From an uncultured bacterium (GTDB lineage Bacteria; Zixibacteria; MSB-5A5; GN15; FEB-12): a DNA stretch of 64,000 nt. Below the pieces are notes generated by a model. The model saw nothing but the letters and a program-made list of their open reading frames with translations, had not been told where the DNA came from and searched no databases. Below are positions 6,381-15,802 of this stretch, piece by piece. The stretch's first letter is position 1, and the number at the start of each line of letters is the position of its first letter. The stretch covers positions 1 to 64,000 of the forward strand of contig CBDVDR010000003.1 of the NCBI GenBank assembly GCA_965372795.1. The letters are read 5' to 3'. The translations under genes and the position numbers were made by a program.

Positions 6381-6644
6381 TTAAATTAAATTATCAATTG
6401 GTTTTATTGTGATTTCTTCATCACCTTTGAAGGGGTCATGGCTTGAGTAAAATATATGGTTCTTTACTAAATAGTCGGTATCAAAATTTCGGTTATCAGT
6501 TAGTTTCAGAGTATAAAGGAGTTCATTTGATCTTATTAACAGGCTTAATGACTGTTCGCAATTGCAGTTGTCTTGCGCAAAAGAGGATGAGGGTAAGGCT
6601 ATAACTATAACTATAATTATAAGTGCAATAATACCTTTTTTCAA
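6381..6644 (-). pseudogene. Short secreted-protein remnant, possibly internally deleted
   Basis: Signal peptide plus AQDNCNCEQ, then only about 55 more residues; first ORF after the ECF promoter. Confidence 0.4.
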
Positions 6645-6692
6645 ATTTCCCCTTTTTCCATATAATATTTTTTAAGTTCTCTAATATGTAAG

Positions 6693-6720
6693 TAGACGAC
6701 AGGGTCTGGTATTTGTTTCA
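6693..6720 (-). promoter_or_regulatory. ECF sigma (SigW-like) promoter TGAAAC-N16-CGTCTA
   Basis: Minus strand reads TGAAAC aaataccagaccctgt CGTCTA, 48 nt upstream of the first ORF of the array. Confidence 0.7.
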
Positions 6721-6764
6721 AAAAATAATATTTAAATGGATATTTTATTAGCTTTAATATATTT

Positions 6765-6882
6765 TGCCGCTCTGTAACATTTTCTGCCCATTATGTTGAC
6801 TACTGCTACAACATCAGTCGGATTAGTACCGCTTTGGATTGGCGGTACTATAATGTGGGAACCTATGGCAGTTGTAATTAAT
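6765..6882 (+). pseudogene. C-terminal fragment of an AcrB-family RND transporter
   Basis: FLPIMLTTATTSVGLVPLWIGGTIMWEPMAVVI resembles the RPI.LTT...G.IPL...PMA TM11-12 segment; in-frame stop just upstream, no N-terminal part. Confidence 0.7.
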
Positions 6883-7065
6883 TGCCAAACAATAAGTAGC
6901 GAAAGTACTGAATTTATAATCTGTAATAAAACTAAATGTCATTTAAGAAAACTATCTGGTTACTTTGATCAATTGAAATATTGATCAAAATTAAACTATT
7001 TTATATTTGATTGCCTTTTATAATTATTCTATTCATAACTAGTTGTTTGATATAAGGAGTTTTGA

Positions 7066-7893
7066 ATGCCAATTAAACCAGAGAATTCATACTTATTGGA
7101 TCGTTTTCTTCATATAATAGGAGTTAACAAGCGAAGACCCAGTAACGAAGCATTAACAGAGTTGGTTGCCGCCTATTTGATGCGAGTTCCCTTCGAAAAT
7201 ATTTCCAAGTTATTTTATAAGAAGCGCCACTGTTTGCGGGGATTGCCTGATCTTGAAATTTACATAAACGGAATTGAACGTTATAACTTTGGCGGAACCT
7301 GTTACTCCAATAATTACTACTTTCATCTCCTGCTAAAGTATTTGGGATACAACGTCATGCTGTGCGGAGCAGATATGTCCGATCCTGACGTCCACTTGGT
7401 TAATATTGTGTCGTTGGAAGGACGAGAATTAATAGTTGACGCCGGCTATGGTGCACCGTTTCTGGTGCCACTTCCTCGCGATCTGAAAGAAGATCATATC
7501 ATAGCCTTGGGGCTCGACAGGTATGTGCTAAAACCTCAAGACATGAACGGGAACTCACGTCTTGAACTGTATCGGGACGGACAATATAAGCATGGGTATG
7601 TTGTGAAACCAATATCGCGGGAGATTGAATATTTTAATCGGATCATAGTAGAATCGTTCAGTGACAGCGCTACATTTATGAACGCACTCTTGTTGGTTCG
7701 TTTTTATCCCAACCAATCTATCGTGATACACAATCTTTCTGTTATAAAATCGGAAGGAACGGATTACGATATTCATCAACTAACGAGCCGGAATGAACTT
7801 CCTCCAATTGTGGAAAAGTATTTCTCGATACCTCAGGAAATCGTTTCTGAAGCCATTGCGGAGTTGGGCGAATTTGGCGATGCCTGGAACTGA
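7066..7893 (+). CDS. Arylamine N-acetyltransferase family protein
   Basis: PFENI, GGTCY (Cys), H and DAGYG (Asp) triad motifs; AAGGAG SD. Confidence 0.9.
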   Translation: MPIKPENSYLLDRFLHIIGVNKRRPSNEALTELVAAYLMRVPFENISKLFYKKRHCLRGLPDLEIYINGIERYNFGGTCYSNNYYFHLLLKYLGYNVMLCGADMSDPDVHLVNIVSLEGRELIVDAGYGAPFLVPLPRDLKEDHIIALGLDRYVLKPQDMNGNSRLELYRDGQYKHGYVVKPISREIEYFNRIIVESFSDSATFMNALLLVRFYPNQSIVIHNLSVIKSEGTDYDIHQLTSRNELPPIVEKYFSIPQEIVSEAIAELGEFGDAWN

Positions 7894-8412
7894 ATGACTT
7901 CAATCGGACTATGATGCAAGAAGCTGTCAAAAACGGAAATAATCTTGTACCATATTGGGTTAAAAATTAAAATACAGATATAAATTATTTAATTCCATCA
8001 GGATAAAACCTAATCCTATGTTAAGTAAAATGATAAAACAAGCTATGCCTGCGATCCCCCTCTTGATTAAAACATCTATAACTTTTTTGTTGACAAAAAC
8101 ATAGCTATTCCACTTTTTTATACAAAAAGTAACTTGTTTTATATTAAAAGGTTACATCAATCAATTTGTTAATGATTCATAAGTTTTAATGTGATGCAGA
8201 TATAAAACAAATCAATTATACTAAATCAGTTGATTGAGAACTGTTTATGCTATATATATAAATTCTTATAATTTTGAAGTGTATAAGTTATTAGATGGTA
8301 GTTTTATTGTAATATTTTGCCGATGATATATAATAATATTGATGATTTTAGAGATAGAGATAAGAGTGTTTTTTGAATAAGAATATAAATTTATTTTATA
8401 TTGGGGTGATTT

Positions 8413-8871
8413 ATGACTTATAATCTTCTCAATGAGGAACAATCCGAACCTACAATGTCTGTTCTGGACGAGAACTTGTCGTTCTTGGCGACACAGGCAG
8501 CTTTGGAGTTGGATATGTTGATAGAGGGCAGGGAGACAAAGTTGGAGGCTGTAACTCGTTTATCCAAAGTAATGAGAAGTAGCTTTAAACAAGTTTCGTC
8601 TGGCGGGCAAGGAGCTTTTATGGATCCGGCAACGGCAACAATTGTGAATAGGGCATTTACTGATTCAAGTCTCGCAAAATTGGAAACAGTTGATGAACTA
8701 ATTGAAAGATCTCATGAATTGGCCGAAGAGTTAGCATCGCAGGTTGATCCCAAGCATAGAAATGGTGGACTTCCGGAAATGAAAAGATTTTGCATAGCTC
8801 TGGCACGTTGTTCTTCTGCTTATCGCGAAGCTGTTCTTGGTCATCGTTCCAAGCACCCTTATCGAAAATAA
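8413..8871 (+). CDS. Hypothetical helical protein, first gene of a three-gene cassette
   Basis: 152 aa ORF, GGGGTG SD, 10 nt from the next gene; no family recognised. Confidence 0.75.
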   Translation: MTYNLLNEEQSEPTMSVLDENLSFLATQAALELDMLIEGRETKLEAVTRLSKVMRSSFKQVSSGGQGAFMDPATATIVNRAFTDSSLAKLETVDELIERSHELAEELASQVDPKHRNGGLPEMKRFCIALARCSSAYREAVLGHRSKHPYRK

Positions 8872-8881
8872 GGTATGACAC

Positions 8882-10126
8882 ATGAACATCATAGAGAACT
8901 CTCTTAGACGTGTTAATGCTACCATCCATACGATAAAAAACCTAAAAGATTCAGAATTTCCGTATTCTGATTCTAAAGATGCGTTGTTCGAAGTAGAGAA
9001 TATTTTCAAGGAAACTCAACTTGCACTTTCGAATGCCAGTAAATCCAACGACGTGTCTCTTAAAGAGCGCACTTGTGAAGAAGCACTCAAGAGGCTTTTT
9101 ATTTACGTTCCTATATTGGGTTTTATATTGAGATCGACAAATGTACGAAATGCGTTTGAGATACACGGACCCCTATTACGATTATCGAAGAGCCTTCTTG
9201 ATGGTAATGATACTAAACTAATACTGTCCTCTGAATGGGATTACTCACCAATGACTTATCCAGGTGTCCCTCAGATGAATAATTTTATTTTGATAGGATT
9301 TCCTGCCACAGAGTCCTCTAATCCGTTTCTTATTCCTTTGGCTGGACACGAACTTGCACACAACCTTTGGCTTAAAAGGAATATTGAGTCTCAAGTTCGA
9401 TCAATTGTTACTCAATTAATCCAGAATGAGATTCAGAAGAATAGGTGGGAAAAATTTATAGACCTCTATAAAACTGATCCACGCTTAGAAAGTTGGTCAT
9501 GGGGGGACTTGTTCAACAAAGAATTAATTGTTCCTGCTACTGATTGGGCTACGAGTCAAGCTGAAGAGACATTTTGTGATTATGTCGGTTTGAGGATATT
9601 CGGCCCGTCTTTCTTGCATGCGTTTGTGTACTTGTTAGCTCCTGGGGAAAGGTCGCGAAACGTTGCATACCCTACATCAGAAACTAGGATAAAAAATCTT
9701 ATGGATGCCGCCCTTATGTGGAAACTCGAAGTCCCTGATGAATATAGAAATGTCTTCCAGCAGAACGACAAGGGCAGGTTTAATGAGAAGGACACTTTCC
9801 AACTAGATCTTGCTGAATTTGCAGTTGACAACCTTGTAGTTGGTTTGAGAAATGCTGCAGATGAACTTGTGGAAAAAGCAGGGCTACTTTCAATTGACCC
9901 GAAATCTGTTCAGGAGATTCGGAAAAGAATTGATCTGACAGTTCCGGCAGAAAAAGCTGAATCACTCGCCTGTATATTAGAGGCTGGATGGGAGGCTGAT
10001 CGCGATGAGACTCTTTGGAGTGATTTTGATCATTTGGATGTCAATTCAAAATATGATAATTTGAAGGAGATAGTCTTAAAATCTATCGAAGCACTAGAAA
10101 TCCAATCACGGACAAAGGGGCAATAA
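8882..10126 (+). CDS. Soluble gluzincin/M48-like zinc metallopeptidase-fold protein
   Basis: GHELAH (HExxH), downstream EETFCD (ExxxD) and YPTSETR (HP...R-like); no signal peptide or obvious TM segment. Confidence 0.65.
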   Translation: MNIIENSLRRVNATIHTIKNLKDSEFPYSDSKDALFEVENIFKETQLALSNASKSNDVSLKERTCEEALKRLFIYVPILGFILRSTNVRNAFEIHGPLLRLSKSLLDGNDTKLILSSEWDYSPMTYPGVPQMNNFILIGFPATESSNPFLIPLAGHELAHNLWLKRNIESQVRSIVTQLIQNEIQKNRWEKFIDLYKTDPRLESWSWGDLFNKELIVPATDWATSQAEETFCDYVGLRIFGPSFLHAFVYLLAPGERSRNVAYPTSETRIKNLMDAALMWKLEVPDEYRNVFQQNDKGRFNEKDTFQLDLAEFAVDNLVVGLRNAADELVEKAGLLSIDPKSVQEIRKRIDLTVPAEKAESLACILEAGWEADRDETLWSDFDHLDVNSKYDNLKEIVLKSIEALEIQSRTKGQ

Positions 10127-10127
10127 T

Positions 10128-10736
10128 ATGATATTGCGATCCAATGATATTGCTGAATTGCTTAGAAATTGTGAATCATCAGAGGATCCTTTTGTGATAA
10201 CTCCTACACCAGAACCTACAAAACTAGAAGAAGATTGTGATGCATCGGTGGATCTTCGATTAGGTAGTTGGTTTGTCATGTTGAAACAGGCTAAAGTACC
10301 TTGTATGAATATCGACGATGACAATAATGGAGGTGCACTGAGGTACACCAGAACGCATTTTGTCCCCTTCGGAGATGAATTCATTCTTCATCCTCGGTCG
10401 TTTGTATTGGGTACAACTCTTGAATGGATTAGACTACCCAAGAATCTTGCTGCGGTGGTAACCGGCAAATCGTCATGGGGTAGGCGTGGATTGATTATTG
10501 CGACCGCTACGGGTGTTCATCCCGGCTTCAGTGGTTGTCTAACTCTGGAAATAACAAATTTGGGTGAAATCCCTATTAAGATCAGCCCCGGAATGCATAT
10601 TTGTCAATTGTTCGTTCATAAGATGACCGACTCGGTAGGCCATGCCGCTGAGAGTAATTTTGCAGTGAGTCGCAAGCCGAAGTTTGGCTTAATTAAGAAG
10701 GATGAATTTGCTGAACTTCTATCCAATCCCAAGTGA
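10128..10736 (+). CDS. dcd: dCTP deaminase, trimeric dUTPase fold
   Basis: ASVDLRLG, GKSSWGRRGL, PGFSGCLTLE and PGMHICQL motifs. Confidence 0.85.
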   Translation: MILRSNDIAELLRNCESSEDPFVITPTPEPTKLEEDCDASVDLRLGSWFVMLKQAKVPCMNIDDDNNGGALRYTRTHFVPFGDEFILHPRSFVLGTTLEWIRLPKNLAAVVTGKSSWGRRGLIIATATGVHPGFSGCLTLEITNLGEIPIKISPGMHICQLFVHKMTDSVGHAAESNFAVSRKPKFGLIKKDEFAELLSNPK

Positions 10737-11042
10737 ATATTGATTCTCATTGATCCACCATTTATTTCATAAATGCTTTCTTTCATCCCACTACAAAAAC
10801 AAACTACATTTAATAAAAATAATGCTCGATAAATTGCACATTATCGGGTTATTTAAATATCTTAATTTTTAGGGTGGATTAACCAAGTCCTGCCCGGTCA
10901 TCGTAAACCAATTAAGTAAAGAGAATGAAACAACTGACCGAAAATAAAAGAAATAAGCCGATATCTTGAGTATTTGTTCCAAAAAGTAATTATTGGGAAC
11001 GAAAAAACTCTACATACAGAGAAAGGACAAGCTGTTACTCAT

Positions 11043-11519
11043 ATGAATTCATTATTAAATAGTGTCTTTGCCGGAATATTAGTTCTAATCCTAATTGTGT
11101 TATTACCTGTTACTGCGAGTGCAGGGAAGGCGATTGGTCCCAGAGCTGGATACGATTTTGATTCGGATAATTTAGTCATTGGAGTTGAAGCTGAATTAGG
11201 TCGAGCATTTCAGAATTTTAGATTTGCACCAAGTTTGGACTTCGGGCTCGGCGACCACTCGACAACTGTCCTCAATGCGGATTTCAGGTTATACCTGTTC
11301 CATCTTCCGGAAACAGGTTTACATTTCTATGGGTCAGCAGGTCCAACTATTCTGCTTAATTCCAAGAGTAAGGATGGTCAATCAGAAATTGGTTTCAGTC
11401 TTGTGGCTGGTCTGAAGATCCCAATGAAAGGTATGAAAAGATATAACTTGGAAACACGATTTGGATATGGTGATATTCCCAAATTCAAGCTGATGCTCAC
11501 CCTCCTTTTCGGCATATAA
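11043..11519 (+). CDS. Small outer-membrane beta-barrel protein
   Basis: Signal peptide, alternating beta-strand pattern, terminal LLFGI; start moved to MNSLL. Confidence 0.6.
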   Translation: MNSLLNSVFAGILVLILIVLLPVTASAGKAIGPRAGYDFDSDNLVIGVEAELGRAFQNFRFAPSLDFGLGDHSTTVLNADFRLYLFHLPETGLHFYGSAGPTILLNSKSKDGQSEIGFSLVAGLKIPMKGMKRYNLETRFGYGDIPKFKLMLTLLFGI

Positions 11520-11579: not shown

Positions 11580-12725
11580 TTATGTAATTTCTTCGGTCGT
11601 TTCCTTGTAGACAACCCCTCTATCTTTAAGTCCCTTCAAAAGAAACTCCACACACTCCGGATTCTTGCCCATAAATTCCGGCGGGGATATTCCCTTATGA
11701 GCATATAGTCCATCAGCAATCATTCGGATTGTAAGAGTCGCAGTATATCCGGTTGTTCGTGCCATTGAGATCACATCAGTTTCCGGGCAATATTTATCAT
11801 ACATATCAATTGTAAGTTTCATTTTCCGCCCATCTTTTACTCCCTCTATGATCGACTGGAAAATAGTAATATCACCTTCACCCTGTTTTAGTTTCCAGTT
11901 AGGAAACAGAACCTGAGCAGTCATTTCAAGAGGACTGGTCTTTTTGCCTTTGATCGTGATGCTCTCTTTTTTTGAAAAGAATCCTAATTCCCGCAAGACA
12001 GTCATCTTCTCAATGTGACCGGGATACCGTAAGGTCTTCTCTTTCAGATTGGGAGCTTCAATAGTTTTAGCCAAAGTTCTCAAGCCATCGGTATTGAAGG
12101 CTTCCAGAGTGCCGATTTCAGGAAAGAAAATATATTCCGGATCGGATAATGCGGGACGTATAATTTCAAATCCATTCTCGATATAACGGGCAGGACGAAT
12201 ATACTCCTCGATAACATCAATAGGAGAAAATACAGCTTTGTATTCACTGGGCCACTCTCTGATCTGTGGCAGTCCGCCCACATAGGTAAGTACCGACTCA
12301 ACCTTATCAAGTTTTCGTGCAGCATTCATGATCAACACGCTGCCCATACCGGGATAGATACCACAGTCCATGACCATAGTCACATTGTTTTCTTTGGCCA
12401 GTTGATCTAATTCAAAAGGATCTTCCTCATAGAAAGCAATACAGGCACAGTTCTTTCCGGCTTTGATGATCGCTTTTGCTGTTTCAAATCCCATAAAACC
12501 CGGGACAGCATTTATAACAAGGTCATAGTTGCTTACAAGGGCAGTCACATCTGCAGGGTTAGACAAATCTTTCTGGATGAATGTTAATTCATGGCACTTA
12601 GCTTTTAAACGGTTCAATGCTTTATCGCTGTAATCTGCAACAGTCACTTCAAATCTATCATCTTTATATAAATCGATAGCCATTGGGGCACCGACCAGTC
12701 CGGCACCAAATACGATAATTTTAAT
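11580..12725 (-). CDS. Saccharopine dehydrogenase / lysine 6-dehydrogenase family protein
   Basis: DCGIYPG, VGGLP, EAFNTDGLRTL and KTLRYPGH motifs; Rossmann GAGLVG lies upstream of the track ATG, implying a start at ATT 12725. Confidence 0.85.
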   Translation of the reverse strand: MKIIVFGAGLVGAPMAIDLYKDDRFEVTVADYSDKALNRLKAKCHELTFIQKDLSNPADVTALVSNYDLVINAVPGFMGFETAKAIIKAGKNCACIAFYEEDPFELDQLAKENNVTMVMDCGIYPGMGSVLIMNAARKLDKVESVLTYVGGLPQIREWPSEYKAVFSPIDVIEEYIRPARYIENGFEIIRPALSDPEYIFFPEIGTLEAFNTDGLRTLAKTIEAPNLKEKTLRYPGHIEKMTVLRELGFFSKKESITIKGKKTSPLEMTAQVLFPNWKLKQGEGDITIFQSIIEGVKDGRKMKLTIDMYDKYCPETDVISMARTTGYTATLTIRMIADGLYAHKGISPPEFMGKNPECVEFLLKGLKDRGVVYKETTEEIT

Positions 12726-14494: not shown

Positions 14495-15802
14495 ATGAGC
14501 ATTAAAACAAATTTAGCATCTATATTTATTTATATTTTTCTCGGTTTATCAGTTTCCGCACAAGAAAAACCGGAGTGGCGGTTTTCTATTCTCGCATCGG
14601 TCTCCGACAGCACGGCTGCATTTTATGGAAGCATGGAAATCGTTAAGGAAAAGATCAACGCTCAATTTAAAATAGTTAACAGTCGCTATAACGATCCGGA
14701 TGTTTTTACCGGTCGCTTTAATTTTGTGGTGGATTCTGTTAATGTTTTCAGCGGACTGCCGTCACGACAATATAGTAATCCACTTGTCGGCTTTGATTTT
14801 CAAATTGTTTATGATATGTACCATTCTCCCCGTGCAAGCTGGATTGGACCTCCGATAAATTCGGTTGCATTCCATATTCCTTATTCGGAAGGGTTTCCGG
14901 ATATACTCGCATTAAGATTTGCAAAAATAATTACCCATGAACTGGGCCATGCCCGAGGCGGAGTTGATTTGTATGGGATGGCTATTAGCAGCCTTTACAA
15001 TGAAGTGAATAGTCAGGAGTTTAAACCTGAGGAATCAATTATGAGCAGTGCTTCTGATTCTATCTGGTCTGAGCATACCATTAATATTATAAACTACAAT
15101 TCAGATTATGTTAAGAAGGACTACGATGAAAATGGCGTTAAACGTTTTTTTAACTCACGATTGGGTCTTCGTGTGGTTGGGTCGTTGGGAGAGACGCTTG
15201 AAAATGTTAAAGTTAAATTGTACCCTCATACCTGGTATGATTATATTATCAAAGATAGTCTTTTTGAAAGTGGTACAACCAATGAAGATGGTATTTTTCT
15301 TTTTAAAAATAATCCATACACTATATATGATAATTACGAATATTCAATAAATGACGACTACTATGGCGGTCCGCCTTTCGGATTGACCCACTCATTGATT
15401 CTGGCTAAAATAATTAATGATAGCCAACAATATTATTTCTGGCTGCCGTTCACAATTTACCAAAACAAATATTTTAGTGAAAATTCTGATACTGCTCTTG
15501 TAACATTGACCTTGAATACGGTAACATCAAACAGCAACAGTTATTTTAAACTATTTCAAAATTATCCTAATCCTTTTAATGCCAGTACAGATATTTGTCT
15601 GTCAATGATGCAACCTGCAAAAGTTAAGATAGATATTTATAATTTGTTGGGGCAAAAAGAAACAAACTTGTTCTCCGGTGTTTTGGAAACCGGTATACAT
15701 TGTTATCAATGGAATGGGGCGGTTGCTTCAAGTGGCGTATATTTTGTTGTTCTGTCGGTTGAGGGGGAGAACGATTGCAAAAAGATGATGCTATTAAAAT
15801 AG
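14495..15802 (+). CDS. Secreted zinc metalloprotease-like protein with T9SS/FlgD-like C-terminal sorting domain
   Basis: THELGH, downstream SIMS Met-turn-like segment; LFQNYPNPFNAST...SSGVYF...KKMMLLK tail. Confidence 0.75.
   Translation: MSIKTNLASIFIYIFLGLSVSAQEKPEWRFSILASVSDSTAAFYGSMEIVKEKINAQFKIVNSRYNDPDVFTGRFNFVVDSVNVFSGLPSRQYSNPLVGFDFQIVYDMYHSPRASWIGPPINSVAFHIPYSEGFPDILALRFAKIITHELGHARGGVDLYGMAISSLYNEVNSQEFKPEESIMSSASDSIWSEHTINIINYNSDYVKKDYDENGVKRFFNSRLGLRVVGSLGETLENVKVKLYPHTWYDYIIKDSLFESGTTNEDGIFLFKNNPYTIYDNYEYSINDDYYGGPPFGLTHSLILAKIINDSQQYYFWLPFTIYQNKYFSENSDTALVTLTLNTVTSNSNSYFKLFQNYPNPFNASTDICLSMMQPAKVKIDIYNLLGQKETNLFSGVLETGIHCYQWNGAVASSGVYFVVLSVEGENDCKKMMLLK

Follow-up and report, generated by a model that had tools for sequence, protein, structure and literature searches.

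A conserved three-gene operon of a zincin-like protein, its predicted partner and a dUTPase-fold dCTP deaminase in an uncultured Zixibacteria bacterium

Layout and conservation of the operon

The first 64,000 nucleotides of contig CBDVDR010000003.1 (assembly GCA_965372795.1), from an uncultured bacterium of the Zixibacteria lineage, form the stretch of DNA analyzed here and are referred to as the window. Near its start the window carries an operon of three genes: (i) gene 1, which encodes a small acidic helical protein; (ii) gene 2, which encodes a zincin-like protein with an HExxH motif; and (iii) gene 3, which encodes a dCTP deaminase (Dcd). The gene calls are based on the open reading frames (ORFs) of the window and their translations, from which the motifs were also read. 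A first-pass annotation made from the nucleotide sequence had described three co-oriented genes separated by gaps of 10 nt and then 1 nt, and the ORFs confirm this arrangement, with GHELAH, QAEETFCD, and AYPTSETR present in the translation of gene 2 and GKSSWGRRG and LTLEITN in that of gene 3. The positions of the genes and of their principal motifs are collected in Table 1.

Related loci were collected by scanning one genome per species across 185,579 species, which yielded 73 loci, all of them in metagenome-assembled genomes (MAGs). These loci span at least 11 phyla, and their carriers include Ignavibacteria, Acidobacteriota, Planctomycetota, Nitrospirota, Gemmatimonadota, Verrucomicrobiota, and Thermodesulfobacteriota and Deltaproteobacteria, as well as Alpha- and Gammaproteobacteria, Armatimonadota, Acidimicrobiales, and Saccharimonadales. 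Homologues of genes 1 and 3 were assigned by profile searches of all ORFs in the 73 loci. Gene 2 is immediately preceded by a gene 1 homologue in 72/73 loci (in the exception, L070, a 163-aa ORF occupies this place) and immediately followed by a gene 3 homologue in 65/73. Where gene 3 is missing, either the contig ends in or just after gene 2 (L011, L053, L059, L069, and L073), or it ends 470 nt past a frameshifted gene 2 (L046), or gene 2 itself is truncated (L072 and L074). The gene junctions often overlap by a few bases, and four copies of the operon appear decayed (L072, L074, L071, and L075). The co-occurrence of genes 1 and 2 with dcd, on which the first-pass annotation had staked its reading, is thus what the other genomes display.

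The three genes have also diverged together. In a Mantel test on pairwise identities, using the 46 loci in which all three genes are full-length, the correlation was 0.85 between genes 2 and 3 and 0.83 between genes 2 and 1, and 0/999 permutations were as high. Because the same gene order recurs in the loci of other genomes, the arrangement lies far beyond chance, and the trio is a conserved, co-diverging unit. There is no fourth conserved gene in the 73 loci, as the commonest neighbor family, a sigma-54-type activator, is found in only 5/73. The five loci, L028 and L036 among them, have this AAA+ activator on the upstream side of the operon, once only 55 nt away on the same strand, and it matches the PADLOC model RtcR_PspF2 (4.9e-100 and 7e-107). 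It is a possible regulator in a subset of loci.

Table 1. Positions in the window of the operon genes, their principal motifs and the upstream spacer.
Feature	Position	Strand	Description
Gene 1	8413..8871	+	ORF, 152 aa; acidic helical protein of no known family; predicted zincin partner
Gene 1 C-terminal tail HPYRK (residues 148-152)	8854..8868	+	Motif in homologues; predicted interface
Gene 2	8882..10126	+	ORF, 414 aa; cytoplasmic gluzincin, unnamed family
Gene 2 HExxH (H156, E157, H160)	9347..9361	+	Invariant in 68/68; E157 and H160 in predicted gene 1 interface
Gene 2 QAEETFCD (Q226-D233)	9557..9580	+	E229 probable third zinc ligand; alignment to M48 motif
Gene 3	10128..10736	+	ORF, 202 aa; dUTPase-fold dCTP deaminase paralogue, operon-specific clade
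Gene 3 catalytic motifs S115..R119 (SSWGR), E141 (TLE)	10470..10550	+	Conservation in homologues; alignment to solved Dcds
Spacer 5' of operon	7894..8412 (519 nt)	.	AT-rich, GC 0.23-0.31; probable promoter region

The three proteins and a predicted complex

Gene 3 is the most readily classified of the three. Its product passes both PF22769 (4.8e-32; 111.6 bits against a curated cut-off of 27) and TIGR02274, the dCTP deaminase equivalog model (126.6 bits against a cut-off of 92.8), and it matches the solved Dcds 4xjc (3.6e-23) and 2qxx, the Mycobacterium tuberculosis enzyme (1.4e-22). Its SSxGR and TLE motifs are in register with GRSSVGRLG and TLEL of the solved Dcds. The Ser and Arg of SSxGR and the Glu of TLE, which we take to be the catalytic residues of Dcd, are kept in the operon Dcd homologues (S115 and R119 each in 46/46, E141 in 45/46). 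Judged by these residues, gene 3 encodes a catalytically competent dUTPase-fold Dcd, as the first-pass annotation had it. In a quick maximum-likelihood IQ-TREE tree, one branch separates the 46 operon Dcds from 16 further Dcds that the same genomes encode (support of 94 in the Shimodaira-Hasegawa-like approximate likelihood ratio test, SH-aLRT), and phyla are intermixed within the operon clade. The operon Dcds also have their own conserved C-terminal segment, RKPxLGxIxxD.

Genes 1 and 2, on the other hand, find no match among the Pfam, PADLOC, and PHROG models, and only sub-threshold noise in NCBIfam. The gene 2 protein of the window has no Pfam match at E<=1, and no Pfam family emerged consistently when 68 members of its family were scanned at E<=5, with PF01435 found in 0/68. 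The family is nevertheless large: a word-indexed search recovered 798 relatives of uniform length at E<=1e-3, while an exhaustive profile search recovered 1,829 cluster representatives among 1.84 billion at the same threshold, 716 of them at E<=1e-30. Where named, these relatives are annotated as hypothetical, including the RefSeq copy on a Rhizobium plasmid. Residues H156, E157, H160, E229, C232, D233, R84, S85, R89, and S117-W119 are invariant in the 68 sequences.

According to an AlphaFold2 model (mean predicted local distance difference test, pLDDT, 93.1; predicted template-modelling score, pTM, 0.92), the gene 2 protein has three parts: an N-terminal three-helix bundle, a mixed core that contains the HExxH motif (approximately residues 88-300), and a C-terminal helical domain. 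A Foldseek search of the full model against the PDB and BFVD returned nothing at E<=1e-3, and the three-helix-bundle matches given by VIA-align for the full model were set aside as generic, being dominated by residues 1-132. Because of this dominance, the core (residues 88-300) was refolded alone (pLDDT 84.7). Its best structural match is ZMPSTE24 (Z 7.5, 163 residues aligned, root-mean-square deviation, rmsd, 7.9 Å), followed by BepA (Z 6.2, 132 aligned, rmsd 4.0) and Ste24p (Z 6.0). Further neighbors are DPP III, 3c37, neprilysin, PepO, PprI, and BlaR1, and the top matches are almost all zinc peptidases. ZMPSTE24 is also the best Foldseek match of the core, at a non-significant level (E 0.39, TM 0.40). 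In a comparison by hhalign of the core profile with an M48 profile, built from 23 domains of the relatives' genomes (25 loci minus 2 at contig edges), the probability was 53.5% (E 1.3e-4, 90 columns), and the alignment matches the two HExxH motifs to each other and places QxEExFCD opposite the E..AD motif of M48 at the same spacing. The gene 2 family profile found only noise among PDB sequences (best E 0.048), and the nearest named clusters in the ESM Atlas, which score only 0.79, carry Peptidase_U49 in 23% of their members or M48 in 24-25%.

In all three proteins no 19-residue window exceeds a Kyte-Doolittle value of 1.6, and all three therefore lack transmembrane segments and N-terminal hydrophobic stretches. 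The proposal that gene 2 encodes a cytoplasmic HExxH zincin resembling M48 is upheld, with M48 peptidases as the closest, if weak, fold matches. Gene 2 is a new cytoplasmic gluzincin family which is nearest to M48, though weakly, and lies outside M48 by the Pfam model. No fused longer forms of gene 2 (726-2070 aa) appeared in the search, which is weak evidence. An apparent fusion of genes 2 and 3 in L013 was rejected as a frameshifted copy, the second ORF of which carries the gene 2 C-terminus. Gene 2 is split into at least two ORFs or truncated in L013, L033, L043, L047, L054, L064, L067, L071, L072, L074, and L075; these breaks are either frameshifts, which in some MAGs may stem from long-read errors, or true decay.

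Gene 1 encodes a protein with a predicted isoelectric point of 5.8. No Pfam, NCBIfam, or PADLOC model, including capH, matches it, no helix-turn-helix (HTH) is detectable by these models, and its best ESM Atlas score is 0.76, to an unnamed cluster. Of the three genes it evolves fastest, its mean pairwise identity being 0.26, compared with 0.37 for gene 2 and 0.52 for gene 3. Sensors and antitoxins are often fast evolving.

When the products of genes 1 and 2 were modeled together, the interaction prediction score from aligned errors (ipSAE) was 0.88 (runs 0.89, 0.87, and 0.88), compared with 0.01 for the best of 3 controls. The mark used for this score was reached by 116/157 solved complexes and by 2/215 mismatched pairs, a calibration that is only rough, with own alignments used. 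Contact agreement between runs was at least 92%, and the pLDDT of the partner was at least 81. The predicted interface comprises residues 1-7, 13-38, 67-96, 124-144, and 148-152 of gene 1; on gene 2 it comprises residues 44-78 of the N-terminal bundle, the loop 206-221, and residues 157, 160, 164-181, 228, 232, 260, and 262, and so takes in the catalytic Glu, a zinc-binding His, and the surroundings of the third ligand. The low-error pairs join residues 24-34 of gene 1 with 45-67 of gene 2, and 72-96 of gene 1 with 208-217 of gene 2. The model supports binding of gene 1 to gene 2. Since we know of no like complex, memory of a solved structure is unlikely to lie behind it.

From the interface we infer that the gene 1 tail (residues 148-152) is the segment placed at the gene 2 catalytic site. 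The motif HP[FYL][RK][RKT] is present in 31/59 aligned gene 1 homologues, at the exact C-terminus in 29, with looser variants in others. A gene 1 protein wrapped around gene 2, with its tail reaching the cleft, would be a pseudo-substrate inhibitor or a dedicated substrate of the protease. A role as inhibitor or substrate had been suggested for the 152-aa protein by the first-pass annotation, and the predicted complex supports it. Two conserved cysteines were also noted: C127 of gene 1 is present in at least 90% of the 59 homologues, and C232 of gene 2 is invariant and adjacent to the putative third zinc ligand. C232 and residues around C127 are within the predicted interface, and redox or cysteine-switch control of the pair is conceivable.

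Mobility, the second Dcd and the surroundings of the operon

Among 60 relatives (genomes of the same genus, family, and order) gene 2 is found in none, while another Dcd of the genome, encoded on contig C9, is found in 60/61 genomes, the one miss being a genome that is only 56% complete. For this reason, the contig C9 Dcd is taken to be vertically inherited and the operon copy to be an acquired extra. A separate housekeeping dcd had been named as something to look for, and its presence on contig C9 means that the operon copy is not the sole vertical dcd of the lineage. The two proteins share 20% identity along the whole alignment and 31% within a local match of 77 residues. Of the other carrier genomes considered, 40/40 yielded the operon copy and 25/40 a second full-length Dcd-family gene. 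The contig C9 gene (L001:1492-2061; G000 contig C9:17615-18181) is itself unusual. Ser replaces its catalytic Glu (TISISN, compared with TLEITN), and it has EPEWEG where the operon and solved Dcds have HPGFSG. Together with the copies of five other genomes it forms a very long-branched clade (support 100), and its status as a dCTP deaminase is only putative.

Gene 2 is also carried by 10 conjugative Rhizobium megaplasmids. On pRetR611c of Rhizobium phaseoli (L079, NZ_CP013550.1 10571-27782), the operon is preceded by a small ORF and a Fic-family gene and followed by genes for an S8 peptidase, a trypsin-like peptidase, and an AAA ATPase, a neighborhood that resembles a group of conflict-type genes, here in a host that can be cultivated. 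Phage database records with gene 2 numbered 0/50,697, and 2.9 million viral contigs gave 2 loci, one of them only a fragment. One IMG/VR contig (L077:135-9374) carries at its end homologues of genes 2 and 3 that directly adjoin a phage head module on the opposite strand, which encodes small and large terminase subunits, a head-tail adaptor, an HNH protein, a major head protein, a protease, and a portal. This operon may ride at the edge of a prophage. The operon is patchily distributed and horizontally spread, and the idea that the trio sits among accessory genes as a cassette is borne out by its recurrence in other genomes together with its absence from the relatives.

The surroundings of the operon in the window are themselves accessory and include genes for an arylamine N-acetyltransferase, a saccharopine dehydrogenase, a glyoxalase, an AHSA1-like protein, and a cargo protein of the type IX secretion system (T9SS). 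The flanking dehydrogenase gene (11580-12683) has only 31-37% identical paralogues, and no close orthologue, in 20 relatives; an empty insertion site therefore cannot be defined at this locus. The first-pass annotation had remarked that the operon is richer in GC than the spacer upstream, and this part of its remark stands (GC 0.23 at 8000-8399, compared with 0.39-0.45 inside the operon genes). The neighboring coding genes, however, reach 0.37-0.44, close to the operon genes, and the contrast is therefore one of intergenic with coding DNA, with no sign of foreign composition. A promoter scan placed sigma-70-like sites at 8307-8334 and 8395-8424, but the 10 such sites in 7850-11050 are not above the number in shuffled sequences (10.9, sd 3.2). 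Terminator-like sites around the operon are likewise not above the shuffled expectation. An unrelated, secreted metalloprotease-like gene lies 3.8 kb downstream (14495-15802, + strand). Its 435-aa product has a signal-like segment at the N-terminus, contains an HELGH motif, and matches the T9SS C-terminal sorting domain weakly, at 25.3 bits, which falls short of the cut-off of 27.

Comparison with known systems and interpretation

Depletion of dCTP is an established principle of defense, and the defensive dCTP deaminase described in the accessible text of Tal et al. (10.1101/2021.04.26.441389) is a 576-aa protein with a zinc-dependent cytosine-deaminase domain and an N-terminal kinase domain, which agrees with the first-pass annotation's description of the known defensive enzymes (a zinc cytidine-deaminase fold with a P-loop domain). 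The trio shares with such enzymes the proposed output, dCTP depletion, and an accessory, patchy distribution. In contrast to these single polypeptides, gene 3 encodes a short protein of the trimeric dUTPase/Dcd fold, is accompanied by two separate control genes, and has no PADLOC match. Because the known enzymes are zinc cytosine-deaminase and kinase proteins, the trio is not a member of their family. AvcD/DcdV of Vibrio is presumably a defensive dCTP deaminase of the same kind. With the housekeeping Dcds (TIGR02274/PF22769; solved as 4xjc, 2qxx, and 1xs1) gene 3 shares fold, family, and the catalytic Ser, Arg, and Glu, but it differs in its operon-only clade, its distinct C-terminal segment, and its horizontal spread.

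Gene 2 resembles the M48 peptidases (Ste24/ZMPSTE24, HtpX, and BepA) in its HExxH motif, in a Glu ligand about 70 residues further on, and in an E..(A/C)D..G motif; unlike them, it has no PF01435 match and no membrane segments, and its N-terminal bundle and C-terminal helical domain are its own. Lit of prophage e14 (Peptidase_U49) is reportedly a cytoplasmic HExxH protease active in phage exclusion, which is said to act alone on EF-Tu, with no deaminase. The likeness of gene 2 to Lit is an ESM Atlas lead only, and there is no Pfam match to PF10463. The arrangement also recalls CapH-CapP, IrrE/DdrO, and ImmA/ImmR, in that an effector gene is preceded by the genes for a small protein and for a cytoplasmic HExxH peptidase with a predicted action on that protein. 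In modules of this type (Lau et al., 10.1101/2022.04.27.489752), a zincin cleaves a small repressor, and a defense or mobile-element operon is controlled in this way. Unlike CapH, gene 1 encodes an acidic protein that has no detectable HTH and no capH match, and it is co-transcribed with the effector. Unlike IrrE (M78), the gene 2 core is nearer to M48, with PprI (Z 5.1, 89 aligned) ranking below the M48 matches.

Taken together, the trio is probably a protease-controlled switch on the pool of DNA building blocks. We read it as a self-contained mobile conflict module, most likely one of anti-phage or abortive-infection type and possibly one of addiction, with Dcd as the output and the zincin and its partner as the control; the probability that we attach to this reading is roughly 0.45, slightly short of even odds. 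Gene 1 would keep the gene 2 protease silent, or would be its first substrate. A trigger, such as a phage protein or stress, would remove or consume gene 1 and release the protease, and the freed protease would turn on the deaminase, for instance by processing it or by destroying an inhibitor of it. Conversion of dCTP to dUTP or dUMP would then starve or poison DNA replication. The release of the protease by a trigger, the change in Dcd activity, and the fall in dCTP with a rise in dUTP or dUMP are steps that we infer. A narrower form of this reading, in which the operon is an undescribed anti-phage or abortive-infection class whose pseudo-substrate-caged M48-like zincin unleashes a dUTPase-fold Dcd on infection, in convergence with known dCTP-depletion immunity, is rather doubtful.

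Several lines of evidence weigh against a role in conflict, beginning with the neighborhood of the operon. The first-pass annotation had pointed to defense islands, and some loci do adjoin restriction-modification (R-M) genes, of type III (L011 and L045) or components of types II, I, and IIG (L013, L029, L035, and L048), while other loci adjoin GmrSD-like type IV systems (L021 and L069), DpdF-like helicases (L027 and L066), TIR proteins (L041 and L057), or PD-Lambda-4 (L073). Matches to PADLOC models at E<=1e-10 were counted among up to four nearest neighbors (<=2 genes per side) and compared with a matched control, a small sample in which the same pipeline was applied, in 20 of these genomes, to the surroundings of Dcd genes outside the operon. 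Such matches made up 25/241 neighboring proteins of the operon and 7/78 of the control (Fisher p 0.83), and were present at 23/73 and 6/20 loci, respectively (Fisher p 1.0); for R-M-type matches the counts were 9/241 and 0/78 (p 0.12). Defense matches are thus no commoner near the trio than around other Dcds of the same genomes, which, with so small a control, removes the neighborhood argument as support for defense but does not amount to a negative result. One non-operon Dcd has a setting of its own: in L086 (G096:C3:558210-570674), a 323-aa Dcd-family gene stands ahead of a subtilase-like (3.5e-44) and an LmuA-like gene (1.1e-51), at ORFs 6620-8809 and 8835-10085. This may be a further Dcd paralogue with conflict-type surroundings, which would weaken the control set.

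No PADLOC model matches any of the three proteins, gene 3 having none at E<=1, and the neighbors in the window are metabolic or secreted rather than defense genes. That the gene 1 tail meets the catalytic residues was read from two residue lists and not from a listed contact pair, the tail motif is missing in 28/59 gene 1 homologues, most visibly in the alphaproteobacterial branch, and the physical link is modeled for genes 1 and 2 only, with none for gene 3. The operon copy is, moreover, the sole Dcd-family match in 9/40 carrier genomes, the completeness of which is not known, and the other Dcd matches are weak or partial in 6 more. In genomes with no other clear Dcd, the operon enzyme could serve ordinary metabolism. 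A description of the trio was not found in the literature, including the accessible text of 10.1101/2025.09.30.679545 and PMC13092281, the supplementary tables of which could list it. The evidence is mixed; a role in defense is not established, and the biological role is unproven.

One alternative is a physiological module, in which the amount or activity of an auxiliary Dcd would be set by a dedicated protease and adaptor pair, for instance to secure dTTP supply or dCTP/dTTP balance in bacteria of soil and sediment that grow slowly, starve, or suffer DNA damage. The lack of enrichment over the matched control, the metabolic neighbors in the window, and the carriers with no other clear Dcd all fit such a module, as do a gene 3 score above the dCTP deaminase equivalog cut-off and carriers that are environmental MAGs of many phyla and Rhizobium. 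It fits poorly with a distribution of 73 loci in 185,579 species and 0/60 relatives, with a genomic context that is not fixed, with the presence of the operon on conjugative plasmids and once beside a phage module, with the fast divergence of the partner gene 1, and with the housekeeping Dcd already present in this genome and in 25/40 others. We also know of no housekeeping enzyme with a private zincin and a cleft-occupying partner. On balance we consider this explanation unlikely, and the self-contained conflict module is preferred over it.

The plasmid copies raise another explanation, an addiction module of toxin-antitoxin (TA) type for plasmids and islands, in which Dcd would be the toxin, gene 1 a labile antitoxin, and gene 2 its protease, so that no role against phage would be needed. 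The 10 conjugative megaplasmids, on which the operon stands beside a Fic-family gene, are consistent with it, and so are the tight coupling of the genes, a small and fast evolving upstream gene, and the apparently decayed copies (L072, L074, L071, and L075). Antitoxins are, however, normally degraded by the host Lon or Clp rather than by a private zincin, and in the model, which was made for the gene 1-gene 2 pair, gene 1 is placed on the protease and not on the deaminase. We regard a pure addiction module as improbable.

It is more improbable still that the operon acts on other substrates, with the Dcd-like protein working on a non-canonical or modified nucleotide and the HExxH protein being a non-peptidase hydrolase or a scaffold in nucleotide modification or salvage. 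Such a role would suit the separate clade of the operon Dcds with its distinct RKPxLGxIxxD segment and the weak peptidase similarity of gene 2 (best Z 7.5, no Foldseek match at E<=1e-3, hhalign 53%), and the accessible text of PMC13092281 has DefensePredictor list 'a dUTPase' among unvalidated predicted nucleotide-modifying defense domains. It does not suit the retention of all dCTP-deaminase catalytic residues and the passing of the equivalog model, nor a gene 2 core whose top structural neighbors are almost all zinc peptidases, whose HExxH...E metal-binding and catalytic set is invariant, and at whose site the model of gene 1 places a peptide tail. The idea that a housekeeping dcd lies beside two unrelated genes by chance, for which only the plain annotation 'dcd' of the Rhizobium copy speaks, is refuted by the recurrence of the order in 65/73 loci with variable flanks, by the separate vertical Dcd, and by co-divergence, and its likelihood is negligible.

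The trio as a unit and the predicted complex of genes 1 and 2 are solid within what the loci and the model cover. We place the trio among the nucleotide-pool effector modules, and two of its protein families are uncharacterized. Both are defined here and have no model in Pfam, NCBIfam, PADLOC, or PHROG, one being the zincin family (about 415 aa; 1,829 cluster representatives) and the other that of its partner (about 150 aa). For their relationship the model offers a structural hypothesis, namely that the C-terminal tail of the partner may lie in the catalytic cleft, and the plasmid copies in cultivable Rhizobium make experiments practical. Should the trio prove to be a conflict system, evolution would have arrived at nucleotide-pool immunity on at least two occasions, using deaminase folds that are unrelated, and a protease-plus-decoy trigger would be added to the ways in which such effectors are silenced.

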